A stretch of 64,000 nucleotides of DNA. Origin: an uncultured archaeon (GTDB lineage: Archaea; Thermoproteota; Nitrososphaeria; Nitrososphaerales; Gagatemarchaeaceae). Shown in pieces: positions 8,872-30,184 of the stretch. The stretch is taken from the NCBI GenBank assembly GCA_963817525.1, contig CAWFOU010000007.1:544001-608000 (forward strand), given 5' to 3'. The number at the start of each line of letters is the position of its first letter. Within the stretch, counting starts at the first letter, position 1. Under the pieces are notes generated by a model. It did no database searches, was not told where the DNA came from, and saw nothing but the letters and a program-made list of their open reading frames with translations. The translations under genes were made by a program, and so were the position numbers.

Positions 8872-8900
8872 GGGTTCATCTCGCCGCCGCCGAGACTTTC
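8872..8900 (-). repeat. Degenerate copy of the 23S processing-stem 3' arm
   Basis: gggttcatctcgccgccgccg, 18/21 to the native core gggttcattgcgcctccgccg. Confidence 0.6.
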
Positions 8901-9627
8901 GCGCGTTGGTCTATCGCGGAGGACGGGTACCTCGGCTTTGCACGAAAAAGACCGAAAGTCCCGAGAATAGTCGTATATCCATAAAGGGAATCTGCAAAGA
9001 GGGCGACCAGACTGACAGGAGGCGAAGACGCATCTCCGATGATCGCTTGAAGGGTTCCGTCAGATACGCCAGGGTTGTTCCCCTAGGGCCCGGTAGGACG
9101 CTTCAAATCGAGTGGCATGAGGAATTCTACCTCGGGACAAAGACCGCGGAGGAGATAACGTTCTCGATGGAGGCCAGGATGAGACGGATCTTGCAAGAGG
9201 CCGGAGTCATCAGGTAGACTTGAATCTGTTTGCCGGTTCCAGAGAAATGGCCGAACCCCTAGTCGCCCCCTCAGCCGCGGTCCGGCAATCCTCGAGGTCA
9301 TCGTCTGTAGTCCTAATCGCGAGCCCCATGTCAGCCTGCCGCTTTAACGCCGGGCAGTGCTCCCCCGGCCAGATATGAAAACTCGTCATGCACCAGCTGA
9401 ATTCCTCGTCGGAAGGGTTGCGCCTGGGAGGTGCCTTGGTCTTGACAATCGCTGTCGCCAAAGAACCATTGGGAGGTTGAGATTCAACCGTGTTCAACAC
9501 CCGTCTGCGATAGCCCTTGTGTTATCGCTCTTCTTTGATGGAATTCGCTAGATCATTGTGCGAAGCCTCGAGACGGGAAGGCAATGGAGCGTCAAATTAT
9601 TAAGCTCCCGGAAGCGCAACAGAGCAC

Positions 9628-10623
9628 GTGGAGACGCCAAGCGACGGAAAGAAGGCAGGACACGAGTTCCCGCGGGTATCCGTAGACGACGCTTCCGCCG
9701 ACCTGAGGGCGATGAAGGTCCGTGGCGGGAGCCGGGTCGCCAGGTACGCCGTGCAGGCCCTCAGGGACTATGCCAAAGATTCCAGCGGAGCGAAGAGCCC
9801 GAAAGCATACCTGGACCCCATACTCAAGGCGGGAGAGAAGCTCAAGTCGGCGAGGCCGACGGCCTTCGCGCTGACCAACGGCGTCAACTACGTCCTCAAC
9901 GCGGGAGCGAGGAGCCTCGAATCGGGAGGCCCCGTCGAGGAGATAAGGAACGCGGCGGTGAACGCCGCGAACGACTTTATCGCATACACCCTGGACGCGG
10001 TGAGGATCATAGGGGAGATTGGCGCCGAACGCATCAAGAACGGCGACACCATCATCACCCACTCGGACAGCGAGGCCGCGATGAGCGTCATGAGGAGGGC
10101 GCACGACATCGGGAAGGGGATCAGGGTCTACTGCACCGAGACGAGGCCGAACTACCAGGGACGCAGGACTGCCGCGACGCTCGCCGCCTACGGCATAGAC
10201 ACCACGCTGATCTGCGACTCAGCTTGCAGGGTGAAGATGGGAGACGCGGACAAGGCGATAGTGGGGTGCGACGCGATCTCCGGGAACGGAGCGCTGGTGA
10301 GCAAGATTGGCGTCTCTCAGGTGGCCATGCTCGCGCAGGAGGCGCGGGTGAACTTCATCGTCGCCGCCGAGACCTACAAGGTGGACTTTAGGACGCTGAC
10401 CGGGAAGCTGATCGATGCCGAGCAAAGGGACCCCACCGAGATCGCCGCGAAGGAGTGGATGGAGCGCAACCCCAAGGTGAAGTTCAGCAACCACGTCTTC
10501 GATTTCACCCCGCCCGAGTACATCGACTTCTACGTGACTGAGAAGGGCATCATGCCGCCGGCGGGGATCTTCACGCTGATGCAAGAGCTGCGCGACGAGT
10601 ACGGCCCGCGCTCCTTCGTGTAA
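9628..10623 (+). CDS. eIF-2B alpha-like / ribose-1,5-bisphosphate isomerase family
   Basis: MKVRGG, SARPTA, ETRP.YQG, VSKIG and FDFTPP motifs. Confidence 0.85.
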   Translation: METPSDGKKAGHEFPRVSVDDASADLRAMKVRGGSRVARYAVQALRDYAKDSSGAKSPKAYLDPILKAGEKLKSARPTAFALTNGVNYVLNAGARSLESGGPVEEIRNAAVNAANDFIAYTLDAVRIIGEIGAERIKNGDTIITHSDSEAAMSVMRRAHDIGKGIRVYCTETRPNYQGRRTAATLAAYGIDTTLICDSACRVKMGDADKAIVGCDAISGNGALVSKIGVSQVAMLAQEARVNFIVAAETYKVDFRTLTGKLIDAEQRDPTEIAAKEWMERNPKVKFSNHVFDFTPPEYIDFYVTEKGIMPPAGIFTLMQELRDEYGPRSFV

Positions 10624-10690
10624 TCGTTATCGCCGCCCTATCGGCGTGCCGCTGCAATGTCTGGGCTGGCCCGGGGCATTCGGCAAAGGT

Positions 10691-10915
10691 CTAGGGCTCG
10701 TTCGCGAGGATGTCCTCCCACGTCCTGTTGCCCTCTACCCAGTTGTGGTTGGCCTCGTCGATCATCGAGCGGAACACGGCGATGAGCTCTAGTACCGAGA
10801 CCGTGCGCTTCCCAAACTCCCTCGCGTTCAGCTCCTTCGCGTACTTGTAGGCCTCCCTCCACATCCTCGTCTTGAGCTCGTAAACTATCTTGCTGTCGTA
10901 GTCAGATTTGTGCAA
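10691..10915 (-). CDS. Hypothetical protein
   Basis: Short ORF with protein-like composition. Confidence 0.45.
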   Translation of the reverse strand: MHKSDYDSKIVYELKTRMWREAYKYAKELNAREFGKRTVSVLELIAVFRSMIDEANHNWVEGNRTWEDILANEP

Positions 10916-11129
10916 GGGTCTCGTGAACTACTGAAAAGTGAAGGGAGCCCCTTGGTTATTTGGAGTGTGAATTTCTGCTATATATTAGCCAGCCCCTTCC
11001 GGTAGAGGGGGAGAGCCTGCTCGCGTGTTGGGCTACAATCAGCCGGGGGCCACCAAAACATGGGGACACAGACCCGACTTTAGCTTGGGGAGAATCCTTA
11101 AGTAAACCACTTGGTTAACTATTGCCGAG

Positions 11130-11564
11130 ATGTCTAACCTGCAAACCGAGAAAGCGATGAAGAAGGGGGAGCCGATGGCTGTAGTCCAGGAAAAGGTGCT
11201 GTCGAGGACGATCAAGGAGATAACGCCGTTCGGCGTGAAGCTCGAGCTCAACACGGAGGGTGTTGTCACCGGGGAGCTTTACACGGCCCAGCACATGGAG
11301 ACGGTCAACCTCTTCCAGAAGACCGACGGCACCTTCGAGAGCGAGGCCAGAGCCATAGAGACGACGAAGGAGGGCGACGTCCTGGTGATATCGTACAAGG
11401 GGACTGGAAGGCAGACCGGGCTGACCACGCTGTGGGGGGAGAGCGAGGGGATCATAATGACCCAGTCCAAGAGGCTCGCGCAGCTGAACAACTCGCGGCT
11501 AAGAGCCGAAGTGAACGCTGACTATGCGACCGGGGTCGTCCAGGTAAAGTACTACGAGCCGTAG
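11130..11564 (+). CDS. Hypothetical protein
   Basis: Beta-rich ORF, host-like codon bias. Confidence 0.7.
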   Translation: MSNLQTEKAMKKGEPMAVVQEKVLSRTIKEITPFGVKLELNTEGVVTGELYTAQHMETVNLFQKTDGTFESEARAIETTKEGDVLVISYKGTGRQTGLTTLWGESEGIIMTQSKRLAQLNNSRLRAEVNADYATGVVQVKYYEP

Positions 11565-11666
11565 TTGACCGGGCGACTCGAACCAGGGAGACAGCGTCCC
11601 CGGCTCTGGGAGACCGGGACGCTCGACCCAATGATTAAATGTGAAGGGGCGGAGTGAGCAGGCGGA

Positions 11667-12098
11667 TTGCCAAGGAAGGCTTCGGGATTCGAGGAAAGGC
11701 GCTCCCTCTCTCCCGGCCGCCCCGGAAGGTCAATCTCAAGAGGGTCCTCGGAAAAATCTTTGAGGGGTAGGAGACGGAGTTCCTCTGCCAGTCTCGACCT
11801 CGTGTTCTCGGCGCTGTCGAGCCCGACCCGACGAGAAATCCTCGACATGCTTTCGCGGGGGGAGTCCTCGGTGTCCAAGCTCGCGGCGCCGTTCCAGATG
11901 TCCCTCCCCGCGATATCGAAACACCTACGAGTGCTCGAAAAGGCCCAGGTGATAACCAAGGTGAAGGACGGGCGGGTCTACCTCTGCAGGCTGGAGCCGG
12001 AGACGCTCCAAAGGGCCGCAAGCTGGATCAACTCCTATGGCGCGCTGTGGGAGAGGCAGCTCGACTCGCTCAGCGACTATCTCGAGAAAGGGGAGTGA
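11667..12098 (+). CDS. ArsR/SmtB regulator (true start probably downstream)
   Basis: FSALSSPTRREIL and SLPAISKHLRVLE. Confidence 0.85.
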   Translation: MPRKASGFEERRSLSPGRPGRSISRGSSEKSLRGRRRSSSASLDLVFSALSSPTRREILDMLSRGESSVSKLAAPFQMSLPAISKHLRVLEKAQVITKVKDGRVYLCRLEPETLQRAASWINSYGALWERQLDSLSDYLEKGE

Positions 12099-12104
12099 AA
12101 GGCG

Positions 12105-12539
12105 TTGGAGAGCGGTCATACGGAGACGATCCGAGTTCGCAAGGTCGTCCCTGCGCCAAAGGAGCGGGTATTCAGGGCGTGGACCGAGCCCTCTCAGGTG
12201 AAGCGCTGGTGGACGATAGGCGACGGGTGGAAGACCTCGTCCGTCGATGTCGACCTGAGGGTGGGAGGGCGGTTCACCGTCCGCAACGAGCAGGCCGGCG
12301 GGGACCCCCTGCTCATAACGGGAGAGTTCGTCGTGGTGCAACCTCCCGACAAGCTTGTCTACACGTGGCGTTTCCAGTTGCCAAAGCCCGAGGACACGCT
12401 GGTAACGGTCGAGTTCCGTGGCCTGGGCGACGCTACCGAGGTGTTCGTGACCCACGAGTACTCCTCGAAAGATATGGGACCCAGCGCGGTGGCGGGATGG
12501 AATGCGGCCCTTGAGGGGCTTGCCTCTCTGCTCAGATGA
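12105..12539 (+). CDS. SRPBCC/AHSA1-domain protein
   Basis: ERVFRAWTEP, DLRVGG, LVYTW; paired with ArsR gene. Confidence 0.85.
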   Translation: MESGHTETIRVRKVVPAPKERVFRAWTEPSQVKRWWTIGDGWKTSSVDVDLRVGGRFTVRNEQAGGDPLLITGEFVVVQPPDKLVYTWRFQLPKPEDTLVTVEFRGLGDATEVFVTHEYSSKDMGPSAVAGWNAALEGLASLLR

Positions 12540-12577
12540 TTTGGTTTAGGGGAAGTATCCGCCACAGAGCATTCCAT

Positions 12578-13048
12578 TCACGCGTTGGGCTTCGCTCGCC
12601 TCGGCCTTTTCGTCCGGTCTGACCCGTCGTCCCGAGGGGCCTCCCGGGGCCTCGTGGCCTGGTATCTGTCGATGATCCGTCGCGCAGAGAATGCTAGCGT
12701 CGGCTGGGACCCGGTGTAGTAGGCGACCTTCTTGATCTCCCTGCTCGGCTTGGGCACGCCCTTCGCCTTCGCGAGGAACACCTTGTGGGCGTTCCGGAAT
12801 ATGCCCCCTCGGGGGCCCGCGTTGGTCTGCCCGAGGAACTCGAAGAGGTACACCGCGTCGGTCGCGTCCAGGCCTGTCTCCTCCTTGAGCTCTCTTATCG
12901 CCGCGTCCCCGTCGGACTCGTCGGGGCGGGCGCCCCCTCCCGGTAGGGTGAAGAGGTGGCCGTCCTTGCTGACGACAAGGATCCCGCTGGCACTCTCAAC
13001 GATGGCGGTGCCCCTCCTCCTCACGTAGACCATCGCGGGTGCCCGCAA
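12578..13048 (-). CDS. Nudix hydrolase
   Basis: Nudix box PGGG...AAIRELKEETGL. Confidence 0.85.
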   Translation of the reverse strand: MRAPAMVYVRRRGTAIVESASGILVVSKDGHLFTLPGGGARPDESDGDAAIRELKEETGLDATDAVYLFEFLGQTNAGPRGGIFRNAHKVFLAKAKGVPKPSREIKKVAYYTGSQPTLAFSARRIIDRYQATRPREAPRDDGSDRTKRPRRAKPNA

Positions 13049-13071
13049 GGCATCCCGATATAATCGTCAAG

Positions 13072-13112
13072 GCCTGCATGGCAGTTTCCTTGCGCCCCGC
13101 CGGGGCGTTTCA
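13072..13112 (-). repeat. Degenerate copy of the 23S processing-stem 3' arm
   Basis: gcctgcatggcagtttccttgcgccccgccggggcgtttca. Confidence 0.65.
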
Positions 13113-13730
13113 CCGATTCCTAGCCCTGAGCTGGTTCAGCGCGCCTCCGAGAGTCCTGGCTCCCGTCTGCCTCAGTATCTCCCACTCATAGTCTCTCATC
13201 AGCGGGGTCTCAATCCCTCTTTTCTTTGCGTCCATCAGGTACGTGATCCCGTCGTTCCCGCGCGACGCCGTGGGCACGCTGTGGATGGCCAATTCAGCCA
13301 GCGTCTTCGCCGAGAGGGGGTCTATGTTTTGCCCGATCTTGGTGTACAACATGGTTCGAACTCCCGAGAGGTCATGGATCGTCTCCACGATGACGTCGTT
13401 GAGGCCGATGACGCCCGGGCGGCGATATCTCTGTCGACCGGTCTGGTGGGTCTCTCTTCGCCAGAGCATGTCTGCCACCGAGTCTGGAGCGATGTCGTCC
13501 CTGATGACCAGGATCTCTGCATTGACTCGGGACCCTCCGCTGACGACCGGGACCAGGGTCGGGGCGTATCCTCTGGTCTTGCTTTTCCGCGCAAATTCCA
13601 CGTTGAACGGGGTCTCCACGTTCTTGATGCGCCTGACGGTGACCGACGCGATCTCAGGTCCGGGAGAAACAATCAACGAGCCAAAGGCAAGGATCCCGGT
13701 GTTGGCCGGACCCTGGTCTGTCGGCGTCAT
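13110..13730 (-). CDS. Gamma-glutamylcyclotransferase/ChaC-like protein
   Basis: ILAFGSLI and LWRRE motifs; ATGA overlap with upstream ORF. Confidence 0.55.
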   Translation of the reverse strand: MTPTDQGPANTGILAFGSLIVSPGPEIASVTVRRIKNVETPFNVEFARKSKTRGYAPTLVPVVSGGSRVNAEILVIRDDIAPDSVADMLWRRETHQTGRQRYRRPGVIGLNDVIVETIHDLSGVRTMLYTKIGQNIDPLSAKTLAELAIHSVPTASRGNDGITYLMDAKKRGIETPLMRDYEWEILRQTGARTLGGALNQLRARNR

Positions 13731-14029
13731 GGGTCGGTGTACCAGCCGTCCGGGGAGCCCGCAAAGTTCTCCGGGCACGTGGTCACGCGGCCGAGCCTGA
13801 ACTGGAGCCAGACCTTGTCCGCCCTCCTCGTTATCTTGACCACCTCGCCTTCCCACGCTTTCTGGGGGGTCCTCATCTCCTTGTCCACCTTGACGAAGAC
13901 CGCCGGAGTGTTGTCCGCCAGCCTCTCGGGGTTCATCACGCCGCCGCGAAGCATCTCGTAGGGATACGAGGAGACGTTGCCGACCCCGTCCCAGTGGTTC
14001 GACCGGCTGGTGATCAGGACGTATCTCAA
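13727..14029 (-). CDS. Hypothetical protein
   Basis: 100-aa ORF coupled to downstream gene. Confidence 0.6.
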   Translation of the reverse strand: MRYVLITSRSNHWDGVGNVSSYPYEMLRGGVMNPERLADNTPAVFVKVDKEMRTPQKAWEGEVVKITRRADKVWLQFRLGRVTTCPENFAGSPDGWYTDP

Positions 14030-14391
14030 GGTGGGAGTGCCGTCGCGGCCGGCCGGGTAGATAACGCTTCGAGCCGCGCGAGCTAGCTCTTCGACCTGTT
14101 GCTTTCTCGCTGAGCCGACTTCTTGAGTCGGTTAAGTTCGGCGAGTTTTTCCTTGTACTCCTTCTTCTTCTTCTTGTTTCCTTGCACGCGCGCCTGGTCG
14201 TATAGCTTCCTCAGGTTCTCCTCCTCTGACGCGCTGTCGGACAACTTTGGAATTAGGGCGGCGAAGCCGTAGTTATGTCTTTCAGGTTCGGTCTGTTCCC
14301 TGTTCTTGCCGCCTCGGCCGACATGAACCCGACTGAGCGGTGAGACGGAGGGTCATACGTTATAAGCCAGCATCCCCTCGAAACACCAAGA

Positions 14392-14643
14392 ATGTCGTGG
14401 CTGAGAGACAAGAAGCTTGTGCTAGCCAAGAAGGCTAGAAAGGGAGACACCAACTACCTCCACGCCCAACTTCTCCTGGCCGGGGGGAAGGTGGTCAGCG
14501 ACGAGATAGTGGGCAGGTCTCATTCATACTATTTCGACTGCGGCTGCGTCAGGTCTTATTCGGTCAGCGTCGAGTCCGTTGCATCTGAGAGCGTCTCAGC
14601 TTGTAAGGTGCACAAAGACCTTCTGAGCCGCCACAACAGATGA
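14392..14643 (+). CDS. Hypothetical Cys/His-containing protein
   Basis: DCGC and CKVH motifs; TATA-like element upstream. Confidence 0.55.
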   Translation: MSWLRDKKLVLAKKARKGDTNYLHAQLLLAGGKVVSDEIVGRSHSYYFDCGCVRSYSVSVESVASESVSACKVHKDLLSRHNR

Positions 14644-14717
14644 AGCCTTGGTCACCTGGACCGTCAAGCCCGAAATATATATACTATATATAGGGTCGAG
14701 TTCTGCGCGTCTCCGTT

Positions 14718-15275
14718 ATGCCCCAAACGAAGGCGATAGTGAGCATCGAGAACGTCGTAGCTTCTGCCTCGATAAACCAGAGGGTCGACCTGAACGAGAT
14801 AACAAAGAAATTTGTTGACGTGGAGTACCACCCCGACCAGTTCCCCGGGCTGGTCTTCAGACTGAAGAGCCCGAAGACGGCCACCCTGATCTTCAGCTCC
14901 GGGAAGATGGTGTGCACGGGCGCGAAGTCTGAGAAGCAGTCGAGAGAGGCTGTGAACGAGGTCGTCAGGAGGCTGAAGAAGGGCGGAATCTCCATCAAGA
15001 ACGAGGCGGAGATAACGATACAGAACATGGTGGCTTCGGCGAACCTCGGTGGGAAGGTCCACCTGGAGGAGGCGGCCAGGACGCTGCCAAAGTCGATGTA
15101 CGAGCCCGAGCAGTTCCCTGGCCTGATACACAGGATGGCCGACCCCAAGACCGTGATACTCCTCTTCGCCTCTGGGAAGCTGGTCTGCACCGGAGCCAAG
15201 AAGGAGGCCGACGTCTACAGGTCCGTGAACAACCTACACGTGATGCTCGAAGAAAAGAACCTAATGGTCTACTGA
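14718..15275 (+). CDS. tbp: TATA-box binding protein
   Basis: Two TBP repeats (NVVAS/NMVAS, FPGL, SGK.VCTGAK). Confidence 0.97.
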   Translation: MPQTKAIVSIENVVASASINQRVDLNEITKKFVDVEYHPDQFPGLVFRLKSPKTATLIFSSGKMVCTGAKSEKQSREAVNEVVRRLKKGGISIKNEAEITIQNMVASANLGGKVHLEEAARTLPKSMYEPEQFPGLIHRMADPKTVILLFASGKLVCTGAKKEADVYRSVNNLHVMLEEKNLMVY

Positions 15276-15317
15276 CCGCTTCGCGAGCCGGTGACGTTCA
15301 CTTGGTTTCGGACAGCG

Positions 15318-15692
15318 TTAAAGCCCCTGCAGCAGGATTTCTTTCGCTTCGTTGATGTCCTTCATCTTTTCTGCCGACCCCCCGGGTCTGTCCGGGTGCC
15401 ACACCATGGCCATCTTCTTGTACGCCTCCTTGATCTCGTCCTCGGTCGCGCCGGCCCTGACGCCCAAGACCTGGGCGGCCCTCGGGATCTCTTTGACGGC
15501 GCCTAGGTCAAACGGATTGCGACGGTCGTCGTCCTGTCCCGGCCTTCGACGATTATTGTAGGGGTCTCTTTCACGCTGCCTTCTGACCCGCTCCTCGTCG
15601 GCGCGCCATAGTTGCTCGTAGATCATTCTGCGTCGTTCCTCCGTGCGCGCCCAATCCTCTGCTTCCGTCTCCTCCTGTGCTTGCGTCCGCAT
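15318..15692 (-). CDS. J-domain protein
   Basis: [15 protein letters not shown]. Confidence 0.8.
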
Positions 15693-15836
15693 CCCCCAGG
15701 TTCGGCCTTGTGTGGGTATTTAAACCGCAGATTCGCTATGTTTAGAGTCGCCGAAGGGGCTGCCTGCGATGGATAGATTGGGGCCGGGGGATTACCAGAG
15801 CAACCCCCTGTCGGAGGCCGTTCACCCCTTGGACCT

Positions 15837-16676: not shown

Positions 16677-16701
16677 GCGCTAGAATACCCTACGTATACA
16701 A

Positions 16702-17836: not shown

Positions 17837-17887
17837 GTCTGAGAGGAGTTTCCTAGTTCATATTGAATGTTGCGAGTCCCGCGCAAG

Positions 17888-17914: not shown

Positions 17915-17954
17915 CCTGAAGGTGTGAACCTGGAACAACTTAGCGCAAGAAGCG

Positions 17955-20995: not shown

Positions 20996-21184
20996 TCTGC
21001 CGTGGGAGGGTCGCTGTCTAGTTCAGGATTGCGGTCATTCCTCTTCAATTCCAAATCGCCGGCCCGTGGTAGGCTTGGAAGGGAATACTCCGGAGGCTTG
21101 AAATCCACACCTTCAAGCGATTTGAACACCTCAGGACATAGGACGTCGTTGTCGCCCTTGTAGCCGATCTCGAGAGTGATTTTC

Positions 21185-21216
21185 CGCCATGCATAAGGGA
21201 TTCATTGCGCCTCCGC
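21185..21216 (-). repeat. Copy of the 23S processing-stem 3' arm
   Basis: cgccatgcataagggattcattgcgcctccgc. Confidence 0.8.
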
Positions 21217-21244
21217 AGGCTTCGAGGTTCTTGCCCAGGGCAGG

Positions 21245-22474: not shown

Positions 22475-22540
22475 GGCTTCCTCAGGATTCGAGTGCGGTG
22501 GTGGCTATTGAACATGATAGAACAAACCTCAATGTGAGAA

Positions 22541-23680
22541 GTGATGAAGTTGCCGTACAAGGATGGGCGCACGAGGAGTCGCAGCAGACTTTTCTACAAG
22601 AACCGCATCGCTCCCTTCGGTTTGAGGTCTGCCGATACCTCCAAATCAGCACGAAGCCGCCTGAGGTGGGCTGCCTACATGGTGGTCGGCATGGTCTTAG
22701 TGGCCGCCCTTGCCGTCGGGGTCAATGCCTACCTCAAGACCAGCAGCATCTCCCTCTCCGTCGCGACCAATCAGTCAATCTCAGTCCAGGGGAGCCTGAT
22801 AACGCCGCCCGCTAGCCTCCCCGGCGCGCCGCCCATTCTGACCGCGGGGCCTATCGGCGCAAGGCTGACGGACATCAACGTCCCGCTCAACGCCACCGAG
22901 CTCGCCGTCATCAACGACGCCCCGGACTCCTATTTTGTGACCGCCGCCCAGAAGTATCTCAACGGCACCCTCGGCATGGCGGTCGGCATCCCGATCCGTC
23001 CCGCGCCGTCCTTCATCGTCAACGGAAAGCCGACCGTGATATACCTTGGCGCGATCTCGTGCCCGGACTGCGCGGAGAACCGCTGGGCGATGGCGCTCGC
23101 CCTGAGCAGGTTCGGCTCCTTCAATCAACTCTTCAAAGGCTACAGCTCGCTGGAGGACGGTGACGTCCCGACCCTCTACTGGGCGCCGGCCCAGTACAAC
23201 GCCACGCAGGGCGTCGATTTTGGGAACTTCTACACGAGCAAGTACGTCAACTTTCTCTCGATTGATTATGCCTCGCCGATAACGCAGGGATACACCATTC
23301 CGCCCCTAACCTACTTCCAACACGAGGCAGAGGCGCTGCGGAACCCCATCTACTCCGACGCGACGAACATCCTGATAGGGCTGAACGACTACGTCGGCAC
23401 CCCGGACACAGTCTGGGGTAGCTATAGCGTCCCCGGCGCGGATGCGATGGACTTTGGGGCCCCGCCCCCTCAACAATACTTCCTCGCGGCGCTTCCGATG
23501 GTCGCGTTCACCCACGACCAAATCCTGGCGATGTTGGCGAGCCCCCGCACCGACTTCGCTTGGACGGAGTACGCGGCGGCCGACTACTACGTCGCCCTGG
23601 TCTGCGCGAGCGGCGACGTCCCCGCCCCTGTATGCAGCCTCCCTTCGGTCTCGACCATGGTCTCCGAGATTCGGGCCTGA
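22541..23680 (+). CDS. DUF929-like thioredoxin-fold membrane protein
   Basis: GKPTVIYLGA.SCPDCAENRW..ALALSRFG. Confidence 0.75.
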   Translation: MMKLPYKDGRTRSRSRLFYKNRIAPFGLRSADTSKSARSRLRWAAYMVVGMVLVAALAVGVNAYLKTSSISLSVATNQSISVQGSLITPPASLPGAPPILTAGPIGARLTDINVPLNATELAVINDAPDSYFVTAAQKYLNGTLGMAVGIPIRPAPSFIVNGKPTVIYLGAISCPDCAENRWAMALALSRFGSFNQLFKGYSSLEDGDVPTLYWAPAQYNATQGVDFGNFYTSKYVNFLSIDYASPITQGYTIPPLTYFQHEAEALRNPIYSDATNILIGLNDYVGTPDTVWGSYSVPGADAMDFGAPPPQQYFLAALPMVAFTHDQILAMLASPRTDFAWTEYAAADYYVALVCASGDVPAPVCSLPSVSTMVSEIRA

Positions 23681-23967
23681 CCCGAAAAGTCCGAGGCCCA
23701 TCGTCGAACCCTGTAGACGCGGTCGTGGTGCTCGTGGTCCTCGAGAACCACGGTCTTTCTTGCCTCGTCTACTGAGAACAACAAGACATGGCTGCCGACG
23801 TGCACCCGCCTCTTGCCGGCGAGCGGGAAGCTGAGGGGCTTGTAGGCGTGGGGGTCGCGAGCTATCTCTTCGATCTTCTTCGCTATCGCTTCCATTCGTT
23901 TGGCGTCTTTCTTGGCCAGCTTCCTGAACGTCCTATCGAGGCGGTCCCTGATCTCTATGTCATACAT
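23587..23967 (-). CDS. RelE/ParE-family toxin with C-terminal extension
   Basis: PHAYKPL..PLAGKRRVHVGSHVL...HHDRVY. Confidence 0.8.
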   Translation of the reverse strand: MYDIEIRDRLDRTFRKLAKKDAKRMEAIAKKIEEIARDPHAYKPLSFPLAGKRRVHVGSHVLLFSVDEARKTVVLEDHEHHDRVYRVRRWASDFSGQARISETMVETEGRLHTGAGTSPLAQTRAT

Positions 23968-24210
23968 TCATTTCAGTCCGTATCTCTTCCGCAGCTCGGC
24001 GGTGCTTCCCACCCTGATTATGGGCTCCTTCTGAATTTCCATGAGCTTGCGGATGTATTCGGCACTGAACTCCGACTCCAAGACGATTTCCTTGTACTGC
24101 TTCGCCATCTTGTTGATTGCCTGGGACTTGTCCCTCAGCCCGTACTGCGCCTTTAGGAGATTGATGACCTTGTTGGCTTCCTCGTCAATCTCCACGATCG
24201 CCTTGACCAT
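23968..24210 (-). CDS. DUF2683-like antitoxin
   Basis: KVINLLKAQYGLRDKSQAIN; directly upstream of RelE gene. Confidence 0.75.
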   Translation of the reverse strand: MVKAIVEIDEEANKVINLLKAQYGLRDKSQAINKMAKQYKEIVLESEFSAEYIRKLMEIQKEPIIRVGSTAELRKRYGLK

Positions 24211-24278
24211 ATTAATATGATGTTAATACGCGAACTATTTAGCGGTTGTGCGTCGAGCGTGATCTACGCGGTGCGCAG

Positions 24279-24300
24279 AGGGTTAGTTGCGCCTCCGCCG
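24279..24300 (-). repeat. Copy of the 23S processing-stem 3' arm
   Basis: agggttagttgcgcctccgccg; same variant as 17888. Confidence 0.75.
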
Positions 24301-24303
24301 CTT

Positions 24304-24823
24304 CTACGGGGTCGCCGTGGTGGTGACGGTAGAAGTGACCACAGGCAGCGCGCTGAACGTGCAACTGGTCACGGTGACGGTTTGGGCGTAGCTGGTCGAG
24401 GTCGCAGTCACCGTGGTCGTGGAGGCCGGGGGCGCTGGCCCGACCGTGATCGTAGTGGTTTCTGTCGTAATGACCGGCATGTAGGTACAGTCGGTGGTCG
24501 GAATGGCGTAACTCGTCGTAGCCTGCGATGCTTGGGTCGTGAGGGTGGTCGTCACCGTGACGGTCGCGACCGCGGTATTCGACGAAATCCCTGCGCCGCC
24601 AGACGCGCTTGAGACTGAGGTCGGCGTTCCCTAGAGAATTCGACGACGATGTTGTTTGGACTGGGGGTCCAAACCCGCCAACATTTGACACAGTGGACCC
24701 GCAGATGGGGGGACAAGTGAACGTTTTCGTCGGCGTGCTAACAGCCTCTGTCTCCAAGATACCCGCGACGGCCACCCCGACGACAATCAGGACCGCGATT
24801 ACGGCAAGCGCGAGTCTGTTCAA
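24304..24823 (-). pseudogene. T-rich secreted protein, frameshifted near 24630
   Basis: Signal peptide and the SNTAVATV...TTTATP tail are in different frames; paralog at 49155. Confidence 0.65.
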
Positions 24824-24896
24824 GCATCGGCACTTGACTGAGCAGAGCTGTCAGAATCATAAATGGGTTTGTCCGAACGCCTTAGGCTCCGGTAAT

Positions 24897-24987
24897 TTGA
24901 GAAAATGCGGGCATTGTAGCCGTGCATAAGGGTCATTGCGCCTCCGCCGGGGCGCTTCTCTCTCATGTCGGCCGATGGTTAGGACGG
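24897..24987 (-). repeat. Long copy of the 23S 3' end, arm and downstream flank
   Basis: ttgagaaaatgcgggc...gccgtgcataagggtcattgcgcctccgccggggc aligns to 30122-30176; weaker match continues to about 30211. Confidence 0.85.
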
Positions 24988-25003
24988 AAAGGCGACCACG
25001 CCC

Positions 25004-26995
25004 TTGCCGATGTCGTGTTTATCTAGTGTAGACGGCCATTACCCCCGCTTGGCCAACCCCAGGGGATCGCCCGCTGCGAGGCGAGGCCTTGTGCTCGGGC
25101 TCCTCGTGATCGCCCAGTTCGTTGTCATCCTGGATTTCTCGATAGTCCAGATCGCCTTGCCCACGATACGGGGCCAGCTCCACATCTCGATAGCCGACAG
25201 TCAGTGGATCGTGAGCGCGTTCGGCATCACCATCGCAGGCCTCCTCCTGCTGAGCGCCCGCGCCGCCGACTCCTACGGGCGCCGAAGGGTCTTCAGCATC
25301 GGGCTCCTGATCTTCGCCCTCTCTTCTCTCTCCGGGGGACTGGCTCCCTCGGAGGTAGTCCTGCTCGTCTCGAGGGCGGTTCAGGGGGTGGGCGCTGCCA
25401 TGGCCTCGTCCACTGCGCTCTCCCTCCTGCAGATCAACTTCCCCGAAGGGCCCGAGAGGAACCGGGCCCTGAGCGTCTTCGCGGCTGTGTCGTCCGCAGG
25501 GTTCGCGGCAGGGGTGGTCCTGGGAGGCGCGCTGACGGCGGCCTTCGGGTGGAGGGCGGTCTTCTTCATCAACGTGCCCATCGGGCTGGTCGCTGCCTTC
25601 CTAGCGCCCAGGATAGTCGCGGAGAGCAAGGTGGAGGGAACGGGAAAGCACCTCGACCTTCCGGGGGCCTTGGCCGTCACGGCTGGTCTGGCCCTCCTCG
25701 TCTACGCCCTCACCGAGGCTGCGAACACGGGCCTCCTCTCCTCTGGGAGCCTGATCCCGCTGGGTCTCTCCGCATTCGCGCTCGTCGCCTTCCTCCTCGT
25801 CGAGCGCCGCTCCAAAGCGCCCTTGCTCCCTCTCTCCTTCCTGCGCCGCAGGGCGGTGCTCGGTGCGAACGTCCTCGCCCTGGTGCGGACCGCCGCCCAG
25901 GTGCCCATCGTGTTCCTTCTCACGATCTATCTCCAGCAGGTGCGGGGCTACTCGGCGCTCGACGCGGGGCTGGCCTTCGTGCCTCAGGCCTTGGTCTTCA
26001 TGTTCGCCGGTGGCTACCTCGCGAGCAGGCTGGTCCTCCGGTTTGGGACGCGTCCCGTGCTCATGGCTGGGATGGCGATAATGGCCCTCGGGTCTCTCAC
26101 CCTCTTGAGGCTGACAGTCGACACCTCCTTCCTTCTCGGCCTCCTCCCCTCGATGCTCCTCGTCGCGTTCGGCGGGGCCATCTCTTTCACGGCCGTAAGC
26201 ATGGTCGCGCTGGCGGGAGCGTCCCCCGGCGAGGCGGGGCTCGCCTCGGGTCTTGTGAACACGTCGACCCAGGTCGGCGGGCCGATAGGCCTGGCCGTCG
26301 CGGTGACAATAGCCGGAGCGGCGGGCTCGGCGACCGAATCCGCGCTCGTCACTGGGTTCGGGTACGCGTTCCTGGGAGGCGCAGTGCTCTCCGCACTCGG
26401 AGTACTCGTCGCCGCCTCCATGGGACACCCAAGGGCGGTCGTCGCCCCGAGCGAAACGGCGCGTTTGCGGGCGCACGAGCCAATCGTCTCGACGATGCCC
26501 CCGCCGTCCCAGCACACCCCCGCCGCGGCCCCTCTCCACCCCAGCACGCTCAGGAGGATCTTGGTCGCTGTGGACGGCTCCCAGAACGGGGAGCGGGCAG
26601 CGGCAACGGCAATCCAGCTCGCCAAGGACTACACGGCCGAGCTCATCGTCCTGCGCGTGGTCAAGACGCCTATCAGCTATCTCCCGGCAACCCCGACTGG
26701 GAGCGGCGGGCCCTCGGTCATCAGGGACTACTACGACCACGCCCAGAAGGATGCGAGCGAGTACGTCGACGGAGTGGTCGCGAGGGCGAGGGAAGAGGGA
26801 GTGGAGGCGAGGGGCGAGGCGGTCAGGACAACGGTGTCGCCCGCCGGCGCCATCGTTGGGAGGGCGAGGTCGGAGCACGCCGACCTGATAATCATTGGGT
26901 CCAGAGGCCTCGACAGGCCGCGCAGGCTCCTCCTTGGGAGCGTGTCCGCTGGCGTGGCAGCGAACCCCAAGATAGCCACACTGGTGGTAAAGTAG
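25004..26995 (+). CDS. DHA2-type MFS transporter fused to a universal stress protein domain
   Basis: DFSIVQIALP, DSYGRRR, WRAVFFINVPIG; then RILVAVDGS and GSRG...LLGSVS. Confidence 0.85.
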   Translation: MPMSCLSSVDGHYPRLANPRGSPAARRGLVLGLLVIAQFVVILDFSIVQIALPTIRGQLHISIADSQWIVSAFGITIAGLLLLSARAADSYGRRRVFSIGLLIFALSSLSGGLAPSEVVLLVSRAVQGVGAAMASSTALSLLQINFPEGPERNRALSVFAAVSSAGFAAGVVLGGALTAAFGWRAVFFINVPIGLVAAFLAPRIVAESKVEGTGKHLDLPGALAVTAGLALLVYALTEAANTGLLSSGSLIPLGLSAFALVAFLLVERRSKAPLLPLSFLRRRAVLGANVLALVRTAAQVPIVFLLTIYLQQVRGYSALDAGLAFVPQALVFMFAGGYLASRLVLRFGTRPVLMAGMAIMALGSLTLLRLTVDTSFLLGLLPSMLLVAFGGAISFTAVSMVALAGASPGEAGLASGLVNTSTQVGGPIGLAVAVTIAGAAGSATESALVTGFGYAFLGGAVLSALGVLVAASMGHPRAVVAPSETARLRAHEPIVSTMPPPSQHTPAAAPLHPSTLRRILVAVDGSQNGERAAATAIQLAKDYTAELIVLRVVKTPISYLPATPTGSGGPSVIRDYYDHAQKDASEYVDGVVARAREEGVEARGEAVRTTVSPAGAIVGRARSEHADLIIIGSRGLDRPRRLLLGSVSAGVAANPKIATLVVK

Positions 26996-27047
26996 GGTTC
27001 GTTGCGCCTCCGCCGGGGCGATTCATCTGCATGTTGGGCAATAGGTA
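26993..27047 (-). repeat. Copy of the 23S arm and 3' end; supplies the MFS stop codon
   Basis: tagggttcgttgcgcctccgccggggcgattcat...ataggta. Confidence 0.85.
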
Positions 27048-27084
27048 AGTGTTTTTACCGGATGTTATGCAGAACATCTGTACA

Positions 27085-27354
27085 ATGTCGGAGTCTGAAA
27101 AGAAATATCTGATCAACATAGATTTTCCGGAGCGCTCCCGAATTCACCTCAACCCGAATCTATTCCAACTGGACTCTCGGTGTCGGACAGGCAAAAAGAT
27201 TCCAAGCGACGGAGGAACGGTCTATGCTTCACAGGCGGAGGCCCAACGCTACTTAGCCCTAAAGGGGAGTCTGAGGTTCCGGGGAAGGGAAGTGACGAAT
27301 TTGCAGACCTGTAAGCTTTGCTCGAAGCTCCCCGAATATGGACTGAAAGTCTGA
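27085..27354 (+). CDS. Hypothetical protein, low GC
   Basis: Only ORF between two repeats; C-terminal CxxC. Confidence 0.55.
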   Translation: MSESEKKYLINIDFPERSRIHLNPNLFQLDSRCRTGKKIPSDGGTVYASQAEAQRYLALKGSLRFRGREVTNLQTCKLCSKLPEYGLKV

Positions 27355-27369
27355 TGATTCCTGAACAGG

Positions 27370-27429
27370 GGGTTCATTGCGCCTTCGCCCGGGCATTTCA
27401 CTCGTATGCTGCCTTAGGGTAGTGGACGG
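27370..27429 (-). repeat. Copy of the 23S arm and 3' end
   Basis: gggttcattgcgccttcgcccgggcatttca...ggtagtggacgg. Confidence 0.85.
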
Positions 27430-27448
27430 TCTACGTGGTCTTTCGTGC

Positions 27449-28123
27449 CTAATTGGACTTTTGAGAATTCGACCACTGTTCACAGATTGAATGAAGAAGA
27501 CTCAGAGCTTCGCTATCGCCTTCGACAGTCTTCCTTATTGTCCGGTAGTTGTTGCCGAACAAGAAAGGCACTTCCAGACACTTGATTCCTTTCATGTCGC
27601 ACCTCTCCTTGAATGCGTTCCGCTGATTCGTTAATCCGTCACGATTAGAACCAGATAAGAGAATCAGTTCGACCCTCTTCATCGCATCGCTGCTCAAGAG
27701 TCGCTCAAAATGAGATTGGAATTCCTCATCAGGGAGACCCGTACGTATTTGCCGTTTCCCAGATCTTGGACTTGGTATCGACCTTGGAGACACATCCGCG
27801 AAAGCGATTGGTGAAGTTCGATATTTCCTGCATTGGTCCTTCAATTCTCTACTCGTCAAAACCTCAATCCCGTTGAGTTCTCCCACCAGTTTGTACGACA
27901 TGTTCCAGAATGAGGAACGTCTTTTCTTTTGGCTTCCGTCAAAGTTGTATCTCCCGACATCCTCACGAACTGGATTGGAGTCGTTCGGTTCTCTTCCCAT
28001 TATCAAAAACAAAGGGAAGGTGCTTTCCCCACTGTTCCCATAGAGCATTAGCAACGGGTGAAAAGTCAAATTTCGAACGGAACCTGGCACGGCACTCGCC
28101 AATGAATAAGCGTTGGTTCGCAT
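27449..28123 (-). CDS. Hypothetical protein, low GC
   Basis: 224-aa ORF in an AT-richer segment. Confidence 0.65.
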   Translation of the reverse strand: MRTNAYSLASAVPGSVRNLTFHPLLMLYGNSGESTFPLFLIMGREPNDSNPVREDVGRYNFDGSQKKRRSSFWNMSYKLVGELNGIEVLTSRELKDQCRKYRTSPIAFADVSPRSIPSPRSGKRQIRTGLPDEEFQSHFERLLSSDAMKRVELILLSGSNRDGLTNQRNAFKERCDMKGIKCLEVPFLFGNNYRTIRKTVEGDSEALSLLHSICEQWSNSQKSN

Positions 28124-28147
28124 CCAAGGAAGAATTTATCTATAACT

Positions 28148-28378
28148 ATGGCTATGGCCATGGCTGTTCCGGCGACAATGAGCACCACGATTCAAACGAG
28201 CAAGAGGACAGCCCAGCAGCTTCGCGAGATTATGAAGAAGACCGGGGCGAAGACGTACGACGAGATAATCAGGGAGCTGATCAAGGAGAGGGAGTCAAGC
28301 CCAAGCTCGCTCTTTGGGTCGAACCCCCACCTGAAGCCGTTCACCGCAAAGGAAGAGGCAGAGTTCCACGACCTCTGA
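28148..28378 (+). CDS. VapB-type antitoxin
   Basis: STTIQTS...KTYDEIIRELI; upstream of PIN gene. Confidence 0.75.
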   Translation: MAMAMAVPATMSTTIQTSKRTAQQLREIMKKTGAKTYDEIIRELIKERESSPSSLFGSNPHLKPFTAKEEAEFHDL

Positions 28379-28778
28379 ATACGTCATCGACAGCTACGCG
28401 TGGATCGAGTACTTCGCCGGGTCGGCGAAAGGCAAGTCCGCGACAAGATACATCGAGTCCAGCGGCCCGGCCACCCCGACCATCGTCATAGCCGAACTCA
28501 GCCGGAAACTGCTCAGGGAGACCCTTGCAGGCCGCGAGACTGCCGAGGGCAGATCGGAAAGACTCCTGTTCGTAAGGTCATCGACGGTGGTCATGGACCT
28601 GACCGATGGGATAGCGACCGTGGCAGGAGAGATAGACGCCGAGAGGAAGGAGAAGGTGAGGGATTGGGGCCTCGCCGACTCGATCGTGTTGGCCACCGCT
28701 CGGGAGTTGGGTGCTAAGGTCGTGACCGGAGACAAGCACTTCAAGGACCTTGGGGCAGAGGCCGTCTTTCTTGCATGA
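28368..28778 (+). CDS. vapC: VapC/PIN toxin with ACG at the expected start
   Basis: Open frame YVIDSYAWIEYF...GLADSIVLA...VTGDKHF. Confidence 0.75.
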   Translation, partial: TTSEYVIDSYAWIEYFAGSAKGKSATRYIESSGPATPTIVIAELSRKLLRETLAGRETAEGRSERLLFVRSSTVVMDLTDGIATVAGEIDAERKEKVRDWGLADSIVLATARELGAKVVTGDKHFKDLGAEAVFLA

Positions 28779-28782
28779 CTAG

Positions 28783-28822
28783 GCCGTGCATAGGGTTCAT
28801 TGCGCCTCCGCCGGGGCATTTC
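28783..28822 (-). repeat. Near-perfect copy of the 23S processing-stem 3' arm
   Basis: 39/40 identical to 30141-30180. Confidence 0.95.
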
Positions 28823-28871
28823 GCTTTCAAGAAGGTGGCGCCGGATTTCGCTTCGGCGGGCCGGTGAGTGG

Positions 28872-30056
28872 TCAGACGGGGAGGCAGGTTTGGCCAGCGC
28901 CTATCGTTGTGGCATTGACGTTGCCGAGGATGTTGGAATCTGGAAACGCCAAGAACTGGCCCGAAGATGTGGTCAGGTAGAGCTCGTGGCTGTCGGGATT
29001 GTACGCGACTGACTGAAGATAGGCGTTGGATTGCGACAAGCTCGAATAGGAATACATGTTGACGAGAGCGCCTGACGTCCCGTTGTAGACGAGCAGGTAA
29101 TCGTAGTTTTGTGGGACCATCAGCACCTGGTCGAGCGACGGGATGACGCCCATGTCGATGAAGGGGCCGCACGTCTCCGGATTGACCAGGAAGACTCTGG
29201 CCCCAGTCGTCCCGTTGAGGGCGACCAACTCGGATCCCCCCGAGGCGTACACGATGTTCGTCGGCACATCGTAGGTCATGGTGGAATAGTACGCGGAGCT
29301 CAGCGAGACGGTGGCCACGACTGCGCGGCTTGTCCCGTTCACTATGGAGACCATCGAGTCGCAGGCAAGGCCCTCTTGATGGCATCCTTCGGCGTAGATT
29401 ATGTTGGTCTCGGGATTCAACGCCAAGTTGTAGGGCGGGAATCCCAATGATACGTTCGCGACCACCGAGCCGGTCCGAACGTCCAGGCCGATGAGGCTAC
29501 CGTTAGCGCCAAACTGGCCGAAGAGGCCACCAGAGGTGTATACGGTGTCCGTCGATGGGTTGAACGCCAGCTCTCCGACGGAAGAGTTGAGGTGCAGCTC
29601 TCCGACGAGCACATTCGTGGAGCCGTTCACCTCTGCGATCCCGCCCTCGACTGAGACCAAGACCATTCCCGTGATCGGGTCGACGACGACTCCGGAGCTG
29701 CCAGAGGGCAGGGTGACGTTGGCAACCACGAAGTGCGACGAAGCGTCGATTACAATCAAGGAGGATCCGACTGCGTCGTATACTCTGCCCGCGCTAGGAT
29801 TGACTGCCAAGTAGCCCGGAACGCGACCGACGGTAAGATTCGCGGTTTCGATGGCTGAGACGGAGATCGGCTGCCCAGGCCCAGGCGCAAGGGTGGTTGT
29901 GGAAGTTATGGTCGACGTAATCGTTTCTTGAGCTGTTACGGTTGACGTCGAAGTGATGGTCACTGTCGAGGTCCGGCCGCCGCCCGCGAAGTAGCCCGCG
30001 CCCAAGCTGATTACCATCAAGAGGGCCACAGCGACTCCGAGCGCCTCTTTCCTCAT
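28872..30056 (-). CDS. YVTN/YncE-like beta-propeller surface protein
   Basis: Likely start MRKEALG by analogy with paralog MRKEATA. Confidence 0.8.
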   Translation of the reverse strand: MRKEALGVAVALLMVISLGAGYFAGGGRTSTVTITSTSTVTAQETITSTITSTTTLAPGPGQPISVSAIETANLTVGRVPGYLAVNPSAGRVYDAVGSSLIVIDASSHFVVANVTLPSGSSGVVVDPITGMVLVSVEGGIAEVNGSTNVLVGELHLNSSVGELAFNPSTDTVYTSGGLFGQFGANGSLIGLDVRTGSVVANVSLGFPPYNLALNPETNIIYAEGCHQEGLACDSMVSIVNGTSRAVVATVSLSSAYYSTMTYDVPTNIVYASGGSELVALNGTTGARVFLVNPETCGPFIDMGVIPSLDQVLMVPQNYDYLLVYNGTSGALVNMYSYSSLSQSNAYLQSVAYNPDSHELYLTTSSGQFLAFPDSNILGNVNATTIGAGQTCLPV

Positions 30057-30140
30057 AGTCTCTCTAGGAAATGGTCCGGCCTCAAAACCTCTTTGGAAAA
30101 TTGTTCCAGCCTCCGCTAGCATTGAGAAAATGCGGGCTTC

Positions 30141-30184
30141 GCCGTACATAGGGTTCATTGCGCCTCCGCCGGGGCATTTCATTC
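30141..30184 (-). other. Native 3' arm of the 23S bulge-helix-bulge processing stem
   Basis: CCCCGGCGGAG-GCGC-AAT-GAACCC pairs with GGGTTC-GCGC-AAG-CATCCGCCGGGG at 33841-33890 (minus strand). Confidence 0.9.

Follow-up and report, generated by a model that had tools for sequence, protein, structure and literature searches.

The 64,000-nucleotide stretch analyzed here (the window) spans positions 544,001–608,000 of contig C7 of the source assembly, G000, from an uncultured archaeon of the Gagatemarchaeaceae; the other G and L numbers used below denote compared genomes and loci. Our comparisons revealed that the DNA behind the 23S rRNA gene of this window is an array of discrete gene cassettes anchored at the 23S 3′ end, whose junctions fall inside a 24-bp core that also forms the 3′ arm of the 23S rRNA processing stem. 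Between close relatives these cassettes have evidently been gained, lost, and reshuffled, and the content nearest to the 23S gene is lineage-specific. The initial annotation had proposed an integron-like, additive gene capture at the 23S processing arm, and every comparative test that we ran agrees with this proposal. Regarding the mechanism, we tentatively favor, at a probability of roughly 45%, an integron-like chromosomal cassette array that recombines at the 23S processing arm via a dedicated trans-acting recombinase.

The only rRNA operon of the assembly lies on the minus strand of the window, where the rRNA model matches coincide with the 23S and 16S positions given in the initial annotation, and no tRNA gene was detected in the window. 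The parts of the operon that concern the array are as follows.

34072–35569, minus strand: 16S rRNA gene (rRNA model match)
33854–33888, minus strand: 5′ side of the 23S processing stem and complement of core and G part; single-copy in the genome
30179–33845, minus strand: 23S rRNA gene, 3667 nt against a model of 2987 positions
30175–30204, minus strand: "T" part, the final ~26 nt of the 23S together with a linker of 5 nt
30151–30174, minus strand: native 24-nt core, CCCCGGCGGAGGCGCAATGAACCC on the rRNA strand; 3′ strand of the bulge–helix–bulge (BHB)-like part of the 23S processing stem
30135–30150, minus strand: "G" part, TATGTACGGCGAAGCC; outer helix of the 3′ arm

The native core starts 5 nt beyond the 23S 3′ end and is the presumed entry site for cassettes. 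Co-folding of the native 3′ flank with the 5′ flank (~33854–33888) produced one long helix of −74.2 kcal/mol, in which the last 23S nucleotides, the core, and the next ~10 nt pair with the 5′ flank and the 23S 5′ end. The canonical archaeal BHB, formed from rRNA-flanking sequences, consists of two 3-nt bulges around a 4-bp helix and is a substrate of the archaeal splicing endonuclease. Read by eye, the stem found here comprises a 10-bp helix, an asymmetric loop, a 4-bp GCGC helix, a 3-nt AAU bulge, a 6-bp helix, and the outer helix, with the core spanning the 10-bp through the 6-bp helix; the AAU bulge occupies the 3′ strand, and the other side displays a 5-nt/1-nt loop. The motif is therefore BHB-like, a relaxed form of the BHB and a putative substrate of the splicing endonuclease. 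The 16S flank, the 5′ arm, and the other parts of the rRNA operon are unrepeated in G000.

Searching the window for the core GGGTTCATTGCGCCTCCGCCGGGG with at most three mismatches yielded eight matches, compared to none in 100 dinucleotide shuffles. Seven of these read on the plus strand, starting at 19872, 20386, 24929, 26995, 27370, 28793, and 30151, and one on the minus strand, at 49040. A looser scan (up to seven mismatches) added 8872, 13929, 17889, 21198, and 24280 in the same orientation, with a strand count of 12 versus 2 at that threshold, and the recurrence of a same-orientation core in the earlier description is therefore confirmed. The copies described there at 18254 and 13072 proved to be genuine, though degenerate and with an indel (by eye), and its other coordinates deviate by up to 32 nt because flanking sequence had been included. 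The copy at 13929, absent from that earlier list, lies within a called open reading frame (ORF) and may be a chance match. As also described before, copies are intergenic or touch ORF ends, in agreement with our own codon-model gene calls, which were used for both the window and the G007 array. The ORF at 28872–30182 formally begins within the native copy; the true start of this 436-aa first-cassette gene probably lies downstream of the core. The copies besides the native one are listed below, with the strand of the rRNA operon (minus) given for those in the native orientation.

28793–28816, minus strand: core copy, 0 mismatches
27370–27393, minus strand: core copy, 2 mismatches, with a T-like (T′) part
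26995–27018, minus strand: core copy, 1 mismatch, with a T′ part; the MFS-Usp gene terminates here
24929–24952, minus strand: core copy, 2 mismatches, accompanied by T′ and by a lengthened G/trailer part
24280–24303, minus strand: core copy, 5 mismatches
21198–21221, minus strand: core copy, 4 mismatches; compared to the consensus flank, one 1-nt indel
20386–20409, minus strand: core copy, 2 mismatches
19872–19895, minus strand: core copy, 3 mismatches
18246–18290, minus strand: degenerate copy (indel in the core, T′-like part) at the edge of an 87-aa cassette common to G009 and G003
17889–17912, minus strand: core copy, 4 mismatches
13072–13110, minus strand: degenerate copy with one nucleotide deleted, within the old, decayed array part
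8872–8895, minus strand: degenerate core, 5 mismatches
49040–49063, plus strand: inverted core, 1 mismatch

The anatomy of the repeat was delineated by seeding on one half of the core and scoring conservation in the other half (316 and 289 copies). The conserved block measures ~24 nt and has sharp edges, with 1.1–1.5 bits per position inside and at most 0.5 bits just outside, apart from a single adjoining base of 0.6–0.8 bits. On the rRNA strand, some copies carry upstream of the core a T′ part that mimics the 23S tail and is absent in about half of the copies, and downstream of the core most have a short G part whose consensus, CATGGC or CACGGC, corresponds to the outer stem helix; in many cassettes, the identity with the native region extends over 65–110 nt, beyond the core. 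Across the native sites of 30 assemblies, T varies by lineage and G differs at every site, and G therefore belongs to the first cassette. The native core does not vary by lineage, a result to be read with the caveat that many of the compared loci were collected via an exact 21-mer, so that one copy per locus is ascertained and core statistics are partly affected.

Integrons rely on the integrase IntI, a tyrosine recombinase encoded beside the array, and on the sites attI and attC, and the sedentary chromosomal integrons are long cassette arrays of this type. The attC sites are imperfect palindromes with R″/L″ and L′/R′ boxes and a GTTRRRY motif that fold as single-stranded DNA, and integron cassettes mostly lack promoters and share one orientation with a common promoter. 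Folding of the site as single-stranded DNA ruled out an attC-like structure, since none of 10 copies folded better than shuffles (z from −1.5 to +2.2, positive in eight), and the suspicion in the initial annotation that the site is not attC is thereby corroborated. By eye, the core shows GTTCATT at the place of the expected GTTRRRY. We also rejected the repeat as a shared ribosome-binding site with a start codon (GGAGG-N4-ATG on the rRNA strand); in 33 of 33 G007 copies, this ATG opens only 5–127 aa.

Within the genus, the core (at most three mismatches) was found in 19 of 22 other genomes, the three negative ones being 57–76% complete, and it was also present in the single genome of the sister genus. 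No match was found in the one genome from the third genus of the family or in 16 genomes from other families of the order, and a reversed-pattern control gave no match in any genome scanned. Loci with an exact match are attributed to metagenome-assembled genomes (MAGs) of the Nitrososphaerota/Thaumarchaeota, including 'Candidatus Gagatemarchaeum stordalenia'. In G007, a single contig, 39 profile hits in one orientation occupy positions 1,529,676–1,591,798 and run up to the 23S 3′ end, with a median core spacing of 905 nt (range 456–15,395 nt); this count covers 80 kb around the rRNA operon, and all profile hits there fall within that run. G015 carries 53 forward copies, whose main run, among the copies listed, extends over 1.46–1.57 Mb and ends at its 23S gene. 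No repeat of the 23S trailer was seen downstream of the 23S gene in two genomes from other families (20 kb covered in G038 and 4.4 kb in G030). G000 yielded 30 profile hits, four of them on C13, which is a collinear second copy, with the same cassettes, of the C1:541–545k cluster; 11 of the resulting 26 non-redundant hits lie at C7:540–574 kb, and the remainder form six clusters of one to four copies. At one of these secondary clusters, C1:779k, the flanking sequences are not contiguous in any relative.

That about half of the G000 copies reside outside the main array, in small clusters, is what one would expect of a dispersed or regulatory repeat resembling the rRNA trailer, such as a miniature inverted-repeat transposable element or a repetitive extragenic palindrome, or of an assembly artifact. 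Yet the motif is not spread evenly over the genome, as 11 of the 26 G000 hits and all 39 hits in the 80 kb around the G007 operon lie beside the 23S gene, strongly clustered and in one orientation; it lacks inverted termini and a hairpin, and the genes between the repeats are non-syntenic among relatives and move with the repeats. Misassembly at rRNA ends is unlikely because arrays were seen in many independent assemblies, single-contig ones included. Together, these observations leave a dispersed repeat or an artifact with next to no credibility.

The boundaries of the units were examined in 135 sequences (1.1 Mb), where 763 of 2294 ends of inter-assembly high-scoring segment pairs (33%) lay within 30 nt of a core, compared to 2.3% of random positions. 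In 28 homologous unit pairs from different assemblies, two stretches travel with the cassette, 30 nt to the left of its downstream core and 16 nt to the right of its upstream core, and the outer flanks are unrelated. The T-score concordance in these pairs was significant at the downstream side (rho 0.48, p 0.009) and not at the upstream side (rho −0.16, p 0.42). Eight shared derived bases were located at positions 1–8 of the downstream core and none at positions 9–24, and in the best unit pair (95.7% identity), the upstream core shares position 24 and nothing beyond the core is common with the neighbors. These few informative pairs would place the exchange point between about core positions 9 and 23.

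No collinearity of the G000 array with any of 22 genomes of the genus was detected; single window units recur in other arrays at 66–89% identity. Among the cassettes compared, some that occur in differing contexts have a mere 16–24 nt in common with their neighbors. For example, the units at 28136–28821 and 17952–18286, located 10 kb apart in the window, are adjacent in G003:C119, where the cassette corresponding to the former is 84% identical. Similarly, in G015 and G022 the toxin–antitoxin unit at 23710–24244 has a core at either end, and in G011 and G020 it has one at the sole side that the fetched sequence covers.

Comparison with the closest relative (L021/L065/L027), whose rRNA is 95–97.5% identical over the longest matches, further revealed how the array changes. 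Both share the far flank at C7:531.3–536.0 kb of G000, and the first core of the relative corresponds to a core with five mismatches at C7:536,001. From this far-flank match, it follows that the G000 array is ~38 kb long and begins 8 kb ahead of the window, thus overshooting the range originally described. Four distal units are common to the two genomes and differently ordered, with good cores in the relative and mostly decayed ones in G000, and the ~9–12 kb adjoining the 23S gene are unshared in both. In G000, core mismatches grow with the distance from the 23S gene (rho 0.84, p 3e-4, n=13). In a second pair, G007 and L013/L070/L069, the cassette order is likewise permuted: two units lie as A–B beside the native site in one genome and as B–A, 46 kb from it, in G007. 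Gene order is therefore not fixed in either of the two relative pairs. Upstream of the rRNA operon, G000 and G007 are collinear, and no protein of the G007 array matched the G000 array except two flank-like genes near C7:542.6–543.9 kb.

A 24-nt repeat with sharp edges, gain apparently mostly at the end by a fixed "leader" (the rRNA operon), and near-perfect cores between unrelated flanks in G007 are also compatible with a CRISPR- or casposon-like polar insertion, in which staggered cuts by an integrase around the native core would allow the joining of linear DNA, with duplication of the core each time and no need for the incoming DNA to carry a site of its own. We consider this very unlikely, since cassettes move with their own G, T′, and core variants, identical cassettes recur in different orders, and Cas1 was detected in one of five genomes and not in G007.

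Our preference for a dedicated recombinase is based on three features: only one conserved sequence forms arrays, cassettes enter new contexts with as little as 16–24 nt common with their neighbors, and secondary clusters of two to four copies occur without extended homology. Several results weigh against it. The search for an enzyme recovered seven matches to the tyrosine recombinase family PF00589 in G000, none of which lies in the window, as the initial annotation had stated for integrases. The sole PF00589 gene of G007 adjoins tRNA-Leu(CAG), with an AAA/FtsK-like ATPase beside it, 29 kb past the rRNA operon, and looks like part of an ordinary integrated element. Serine recombinases were absent from G000 and present in one of five relatives, Cas1 showed the narrow distribution given above, and IS110 was patchy (four of five genomes). 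Integrase-like ORFs around cores (tblastn) occurred at about the chance rate, at 2 of 115 genome loci and 2 of 120 metagenome loci. No viral contig with the 21-mer was found, and none of 120 metagenome contigs had a terminal overlap of at least 20 nt indicative of a circular form, although short-read contigs rarely show circles. Moreover, the core displays neither a hairpin nor dyad symmetry, unlike most recombinase core sites; T′ matches the 23S tail of its own host in 28 of 42 classifiable copies and not in 14; and the role of the core in rRNA processing at the native site may by itself explain its sharp conservation and would make it the sole segment identical between lineages. G007 shows a weak mismatch gradient (rho 0.23, p 0.17, n=38), and another unit shared by the second pair is third in one of the genomes and first in its counterpart, which violates strict polarity.

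Several of these results favor the main alternative, which we rate as less likely, that excised circles integrate and excise by RadA-dependent host homologous recombination on the short T–core–G identity, with crossovers confined to the core as the sole stretch identical between lineages and cassettes. No array-linked recombinase was seen in any genome examined, the site lacks the symmetry of usual recombinase sites, many cassettes offer 65–110 nt of identity with the native region, T′ type tracks the host lineage in 28 of the 42 copies, and native T is lineage-specific and the core is not (with the ascertainment caveat above). Against this alternative, a single conserved sequence forms arrays, with the 16S flank, the 5′ arm, and other operon parts unrepeated; some cassettes in differing contexts have just 16–24 nt in common with their neighbors; secondary mini-arrays occupy sites devoid of extended homology; and about half of the copies lack T′.

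Copies that duplicate the 3′ end of an RNA gene are also typical of tRNA-targeting elements, and one might envisage a tandem accretion of integrase-bearing viruses or plasmids that used the 23S 3′ end as att and were later deleted to remnants. An integrase gene indeed lies ~0.6 kb from a mini-cluster at G000:C8, likewise in L080, and near a core in L037. Nevertheless, the units measure 0.5–3 kb with one or two genes, integrases are not among the 25 most frequent of 80 Pfam families in 76 G007 array proteins, the only G007 PF00589 match lies outside the array, small units recur intact and core-bounded in other genomes, no viral contig carries the site, and integrase adjacency is at chance level, all of which renders such an accretion highly improbable. 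The Zn-ribbon integrase at G000:C8 was itself examined as an array-linked enzyme and rejected, as the G007 member of its family adjoins tRNA-Leu and its adjacency to cores is at chance. TnpB is common, and none of the G007 matches listed falls in the G007 array. Four sequencing runs of one study contain 55–70% of the words of window positions 20400–30300.

Based on these findings, we propose that each cassette, read on the rRNA strand, would consist of a right core part, G, a body of one or two genes, often T′, and a left core part. Cassettes would pass transiently through circles bearing one T′–core–G site and enter by conservative recombination within the core, mostly at the native site by the 23S gene. 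Such entry could keep rRNA processing intact, as the G segment would be able to restore the outer helix of the processing stem, and the G part may have been kept because the first cassette must complete this stem. Exit or reshuffling could proceed via recombination between any two cores, and older sites would decay as their distance from the 23S gene grows. The catalyst would be a dedicated trans-acting recombinase, not yet recognizable, rather than general homologous recombination.

Since the core is an RNA processing element, a role at the RNA level was also considered, in which BHB 3′-arm copies on read-through or cassette transcripts would pair with the pre-rRNA 5′ arm and act in the processing of array transcripts by the splicing endonuclease, as decoys, or in trans-splicing, and in which cassette movement might even go via RNA. 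The core edges coincide with the BHB-like motif (by eye), and the copies tend to be less structured than shuffles (eight of 10 with positive z), as expected of one strand of a long-range helix. Against such a role, array genes show no orientation bias relative to the repeat (33 "+" versus 32 "−" in G007; 4 versus 9 in the proximal part of the window), the complementary 5′ arm is single-copy, and the observed shuffling is at the DNA level. Reverse transcriptases were found in three of five genomes and missing from two with large arrays, both incomplete, and the G000 cores decay with distance as though unselected. An RNA-level explanation hence appears highly unlikely to us. Of the mechanisms left open in the initial annotation, weight accordingly shifts off the RNA route, in view of the gene orientations and the distribution of reverse transcriptases. 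In a further reading that we regard as improbable, the 24-nt BHB arm would be recognized via the rRNA maturation system or its RNA by-products and not by a classical integrase; abundant 5′-arm RNA, for example, could pair with the core DNA as an R-loop or guide and direct a host nuclease, topoisomerase, or recombinase. If this were true, cassettes would enter only when they restore the processing stem, and horizontal gene acquisition would be tied mechanically to ribosome biogenesis, an arrangement with no known relative.

Among known systems, the array is functionally closest to sedentary chromosomal integrons. It resembles them in its long arrays of one- or two-gene cassettes, with one conserved site in one orientation and a fixed primary site at one end; in a proximal content that differs between close relatives and a shuffled order; in its abundance of toxin–antitoxin pairs, small enzymes, and proteins of unknown function; and in the recombinase-free small clusters elsewhere, which recall CALINs. 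An array of discrete, site-bounded cassettes is thus present. Newest-first insertion may apply as well: the unshared proximal and shared distal units of the G000 pair and the G000 gradient speak for it, and the weak G007 gradient and the first/third unit speak against it. In contrast to integrons, neither IntI nor another integrase lies at the array, the site is 24 bp, unstructured, and asymmetric instead of a folded attC with R and L boxes, and the primary site resides in the rRNA operon instead of an attI beside intI. The cassette genes moreover lack a common orientation, so that a common promoter is unlikely, and the host is an archaeal family.

Elements that target tRNA or tmRNA genes are similar in that the incoming DNA carries a stable-RNA 3′ end with its flank, the gene stays intact, and successive insertions leave direct repeats; here, the T part of some copies does duplicate the 3′ end of the target RNA gene. 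They differ in that the target here is the 23S trailer and processing stem, the units are 10–100 times smaller and devoid of integrase or replication genes, and identical units recur in other orders. The likeness to CRISPR (24-nt direct repeats, a fixed leader-like end, and older repeats degenerating away from it) is offset by "spacers" that are genes of 0.5–3 kb carrying their own repeat halves, compared to ~30–40 nt in CRISPR, and by the absence of Cas1, part of the Cas1–Cas2 adaptation genes of CRISPR arrays, from four of five genomes.

The pdif modules of Acinetobacter plasmids and integrative mobile elements exploiting Xer (IMEX) utilize XerCD at dif, a 28-bp site with two inverted arms that on chromosomes lies at the terminus. 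Like the present units, such small modules, often with toxin–antitoxin or resistance genes, are bounded by a short chromosomal-type site, and they depend on an enzyme that the host encodes elsewhere, as our proposal would imply here. The present core, however, has no XerC/XerD-like dyad, its copies are direct and not alternating, and G007 has no Xer-like gene besides the one tRNA-linked integrase. The position also differs: a GC-skew switch (cumulative maximum) at G000:C7:620,000–630,000, 14–22 kb past the window end, coincides with an orc1/cdc6 gene (C7:625,079–625,348) and is probably a replication origin. The rRNA operon and the array lie 45–90 kb from this switch, away from which the operon is transcribed. 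The core as a dif-like terminus site was accordingly rejected, as the skew switch ~45 kb away, with its orc1/cdc6 gene, marks a likely origin and not a terminus.

We found no description of such arrays in the open full-text articles that we searched, a scope that excludes subscription journals and supplements such as the MAG integron list of PMC9668308. Among them, PMC10640624 does not mention integrase, mobile, repeat, or 23S; "rRNA" does not occur in PMC8371274 (Badel et al. 2021) or PMC6563490 (Krupovic et al. 2019); and "rRNA", "Nitrososphaer", and "Thaumarchaeo" do not occur in PMC9668308 (Ghaly et al. 2022). Should our proposal hold, a widespread archaeal family of acid soil and peat, belonging to the non-ammonia-oxidizing Nitrososphaerota, would have its own cassette system, equal in scale to bacterial superintegrons (tens of cassettes and 60–100 kb in relatives) but with components unrelated to theirs. 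As a cassette platform, it would be the first to have an rRNA processing element as its site and the first without a recognizable integrase, and would account for part of the flexible genome of uncultured archaea. Its defined 24-bp site would provide a handle for finding a novel recombinase or a novel use of the host's own recombination, the array would represent a natural test of the amount of foreign DNA that an rRNA operon tolerates directly behind it without harm to maturation, and the site could possibly serve as a simple genetic tool in Nitrososphaerota.

Cassette content is integron-like. Units are ~0.5–3 kb long (median 905–1062 nt) and hold mostly one or two genes in either orientation; by the codon-model calls, 18 units have one gene, 13 have two, and five have more. 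Among the 76 G007 array proteins, Pfam matches include PIN (5), MazE (4), and methyltransferases (4), together with luciferase-like, glyoxalase, deacetylase, and other families; several array proteins of the window match no family. The units of the window are the following.

28872–30182, minus strand: first cassette, encoding 436 aa with a weak match to a beta-propeller family (PQQ_2); the 409-aa protein encoded at 21245–22474 is its paralogue
27394–28792: unit with a low-GC stretch (0.49), a VapB-like gene, and PIN fragments
25091–26995, plus strand: MFS transporter fused to a universal stress protein (Usp) domain
23587–24210, minus strand: toxin–antitoxin cassette, DUF2683 protein and ParE-family toxin
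21245–23680: 409-aa paralogue of the first-cassette protein (minus strand) and DUF929 protein (plus strand)
20471–20995, minus strand: RibD_C/DHFR-like reductase cassette gene
1–17888: old, decayed part of the array (GH92, PQQ propeller, and IF-2B family, among others); in the closest relative, several of its units occur in another order as core-bounded cassettes

Inside the G007 array, a 15-kb core-free block (C1:1,546,176–1,561,328; L008) carries 14 mostly metabolic genes, presumably those with AMP-binding, thiolase, SHMT, aminotransferase, and amidohydrolase matches, and may represent one very large cassette or another type of insertion.

Further observations concern the secondary clusters of G000. 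At C8:20,526–23,787 (L001 8527–11788), two cores bracket an MNT-like nucleotidyltransferase gene and a 109-aa gene, beside which lie a DnaJ-domain gene and the Zn-ribbon tyrosine integrase, apparently N-terminally truncated here and full length in L080. Three cores, the third inverted, occupy C1:355,098–357,825 (L006), with a 449-aa gene between the inverted copies, and a piece of this region is 89% identical, in inverted orientation, to window positions 22402–22559. A sequence of ~275–300 nt right behind the 24280 core (window 24304–24585) recurs in G000 at 69–84% identity, at window 49704–50009, C1:362552–362832, and C7:76709–76804, and is also found in at least six other genomes of the genus; its ORFs have no Pfam match, and the sequence might represent a small gene, an RNA, or a mobile piece. 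The relative at 49704–50009 is inverted and, together with the 49040 core, makes up a mini-cluster across the rRNA operon from the array.

Likewise, ~40 nt behind the native G part (window 30103–30140, containing GCCCGCATTTTCTCAA) recur behind a few other cores, at window 24888–24920 and in L021/L065/L027, and include a short T run (by eye); as far as the sequence can tell, this stretch might be an rRNA operon terminator carried along by some cassettes. The 23S gene of the window contains ~680 extra nucleotides, which correspond to one or more introns or an expansion, and the 23S gene of G007 has insertions elsewhere, one of them with a 182-aa ORF.

Two bacterial bins contained the exact 21-mer (L108/L034 pair). 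A 251-kb contig from an Alphaproteobacteria bin has one occurrence, which lacks T and G flanks and is probably a chance match. A 5.6-kb contig from an Acidimicrobiales bin has two, with G-like sequence beside them, and probably represents an archaeal array that was binned wrongly. Near the far flank of the G000 array, contig C2 is a 95–97% identical second version of C7:522,375–530,983 with a 1.4-kb insert related to C7:900 kb, and beyond C7:530,983 it has no match in C7; this duplication looks like strain-level variation or a two-strain bin (contamination 8.75%). Finally, upstream of the rRNA operon, the beta subunit of a 2-oxoacid:ferredoxin oxidoreductase (window 37314–39395, minus strand, 693 aa) harbors an intein with a LAGLIDADG domain, and its G007 orthologue comprises 322 aa, apparently without the intein.

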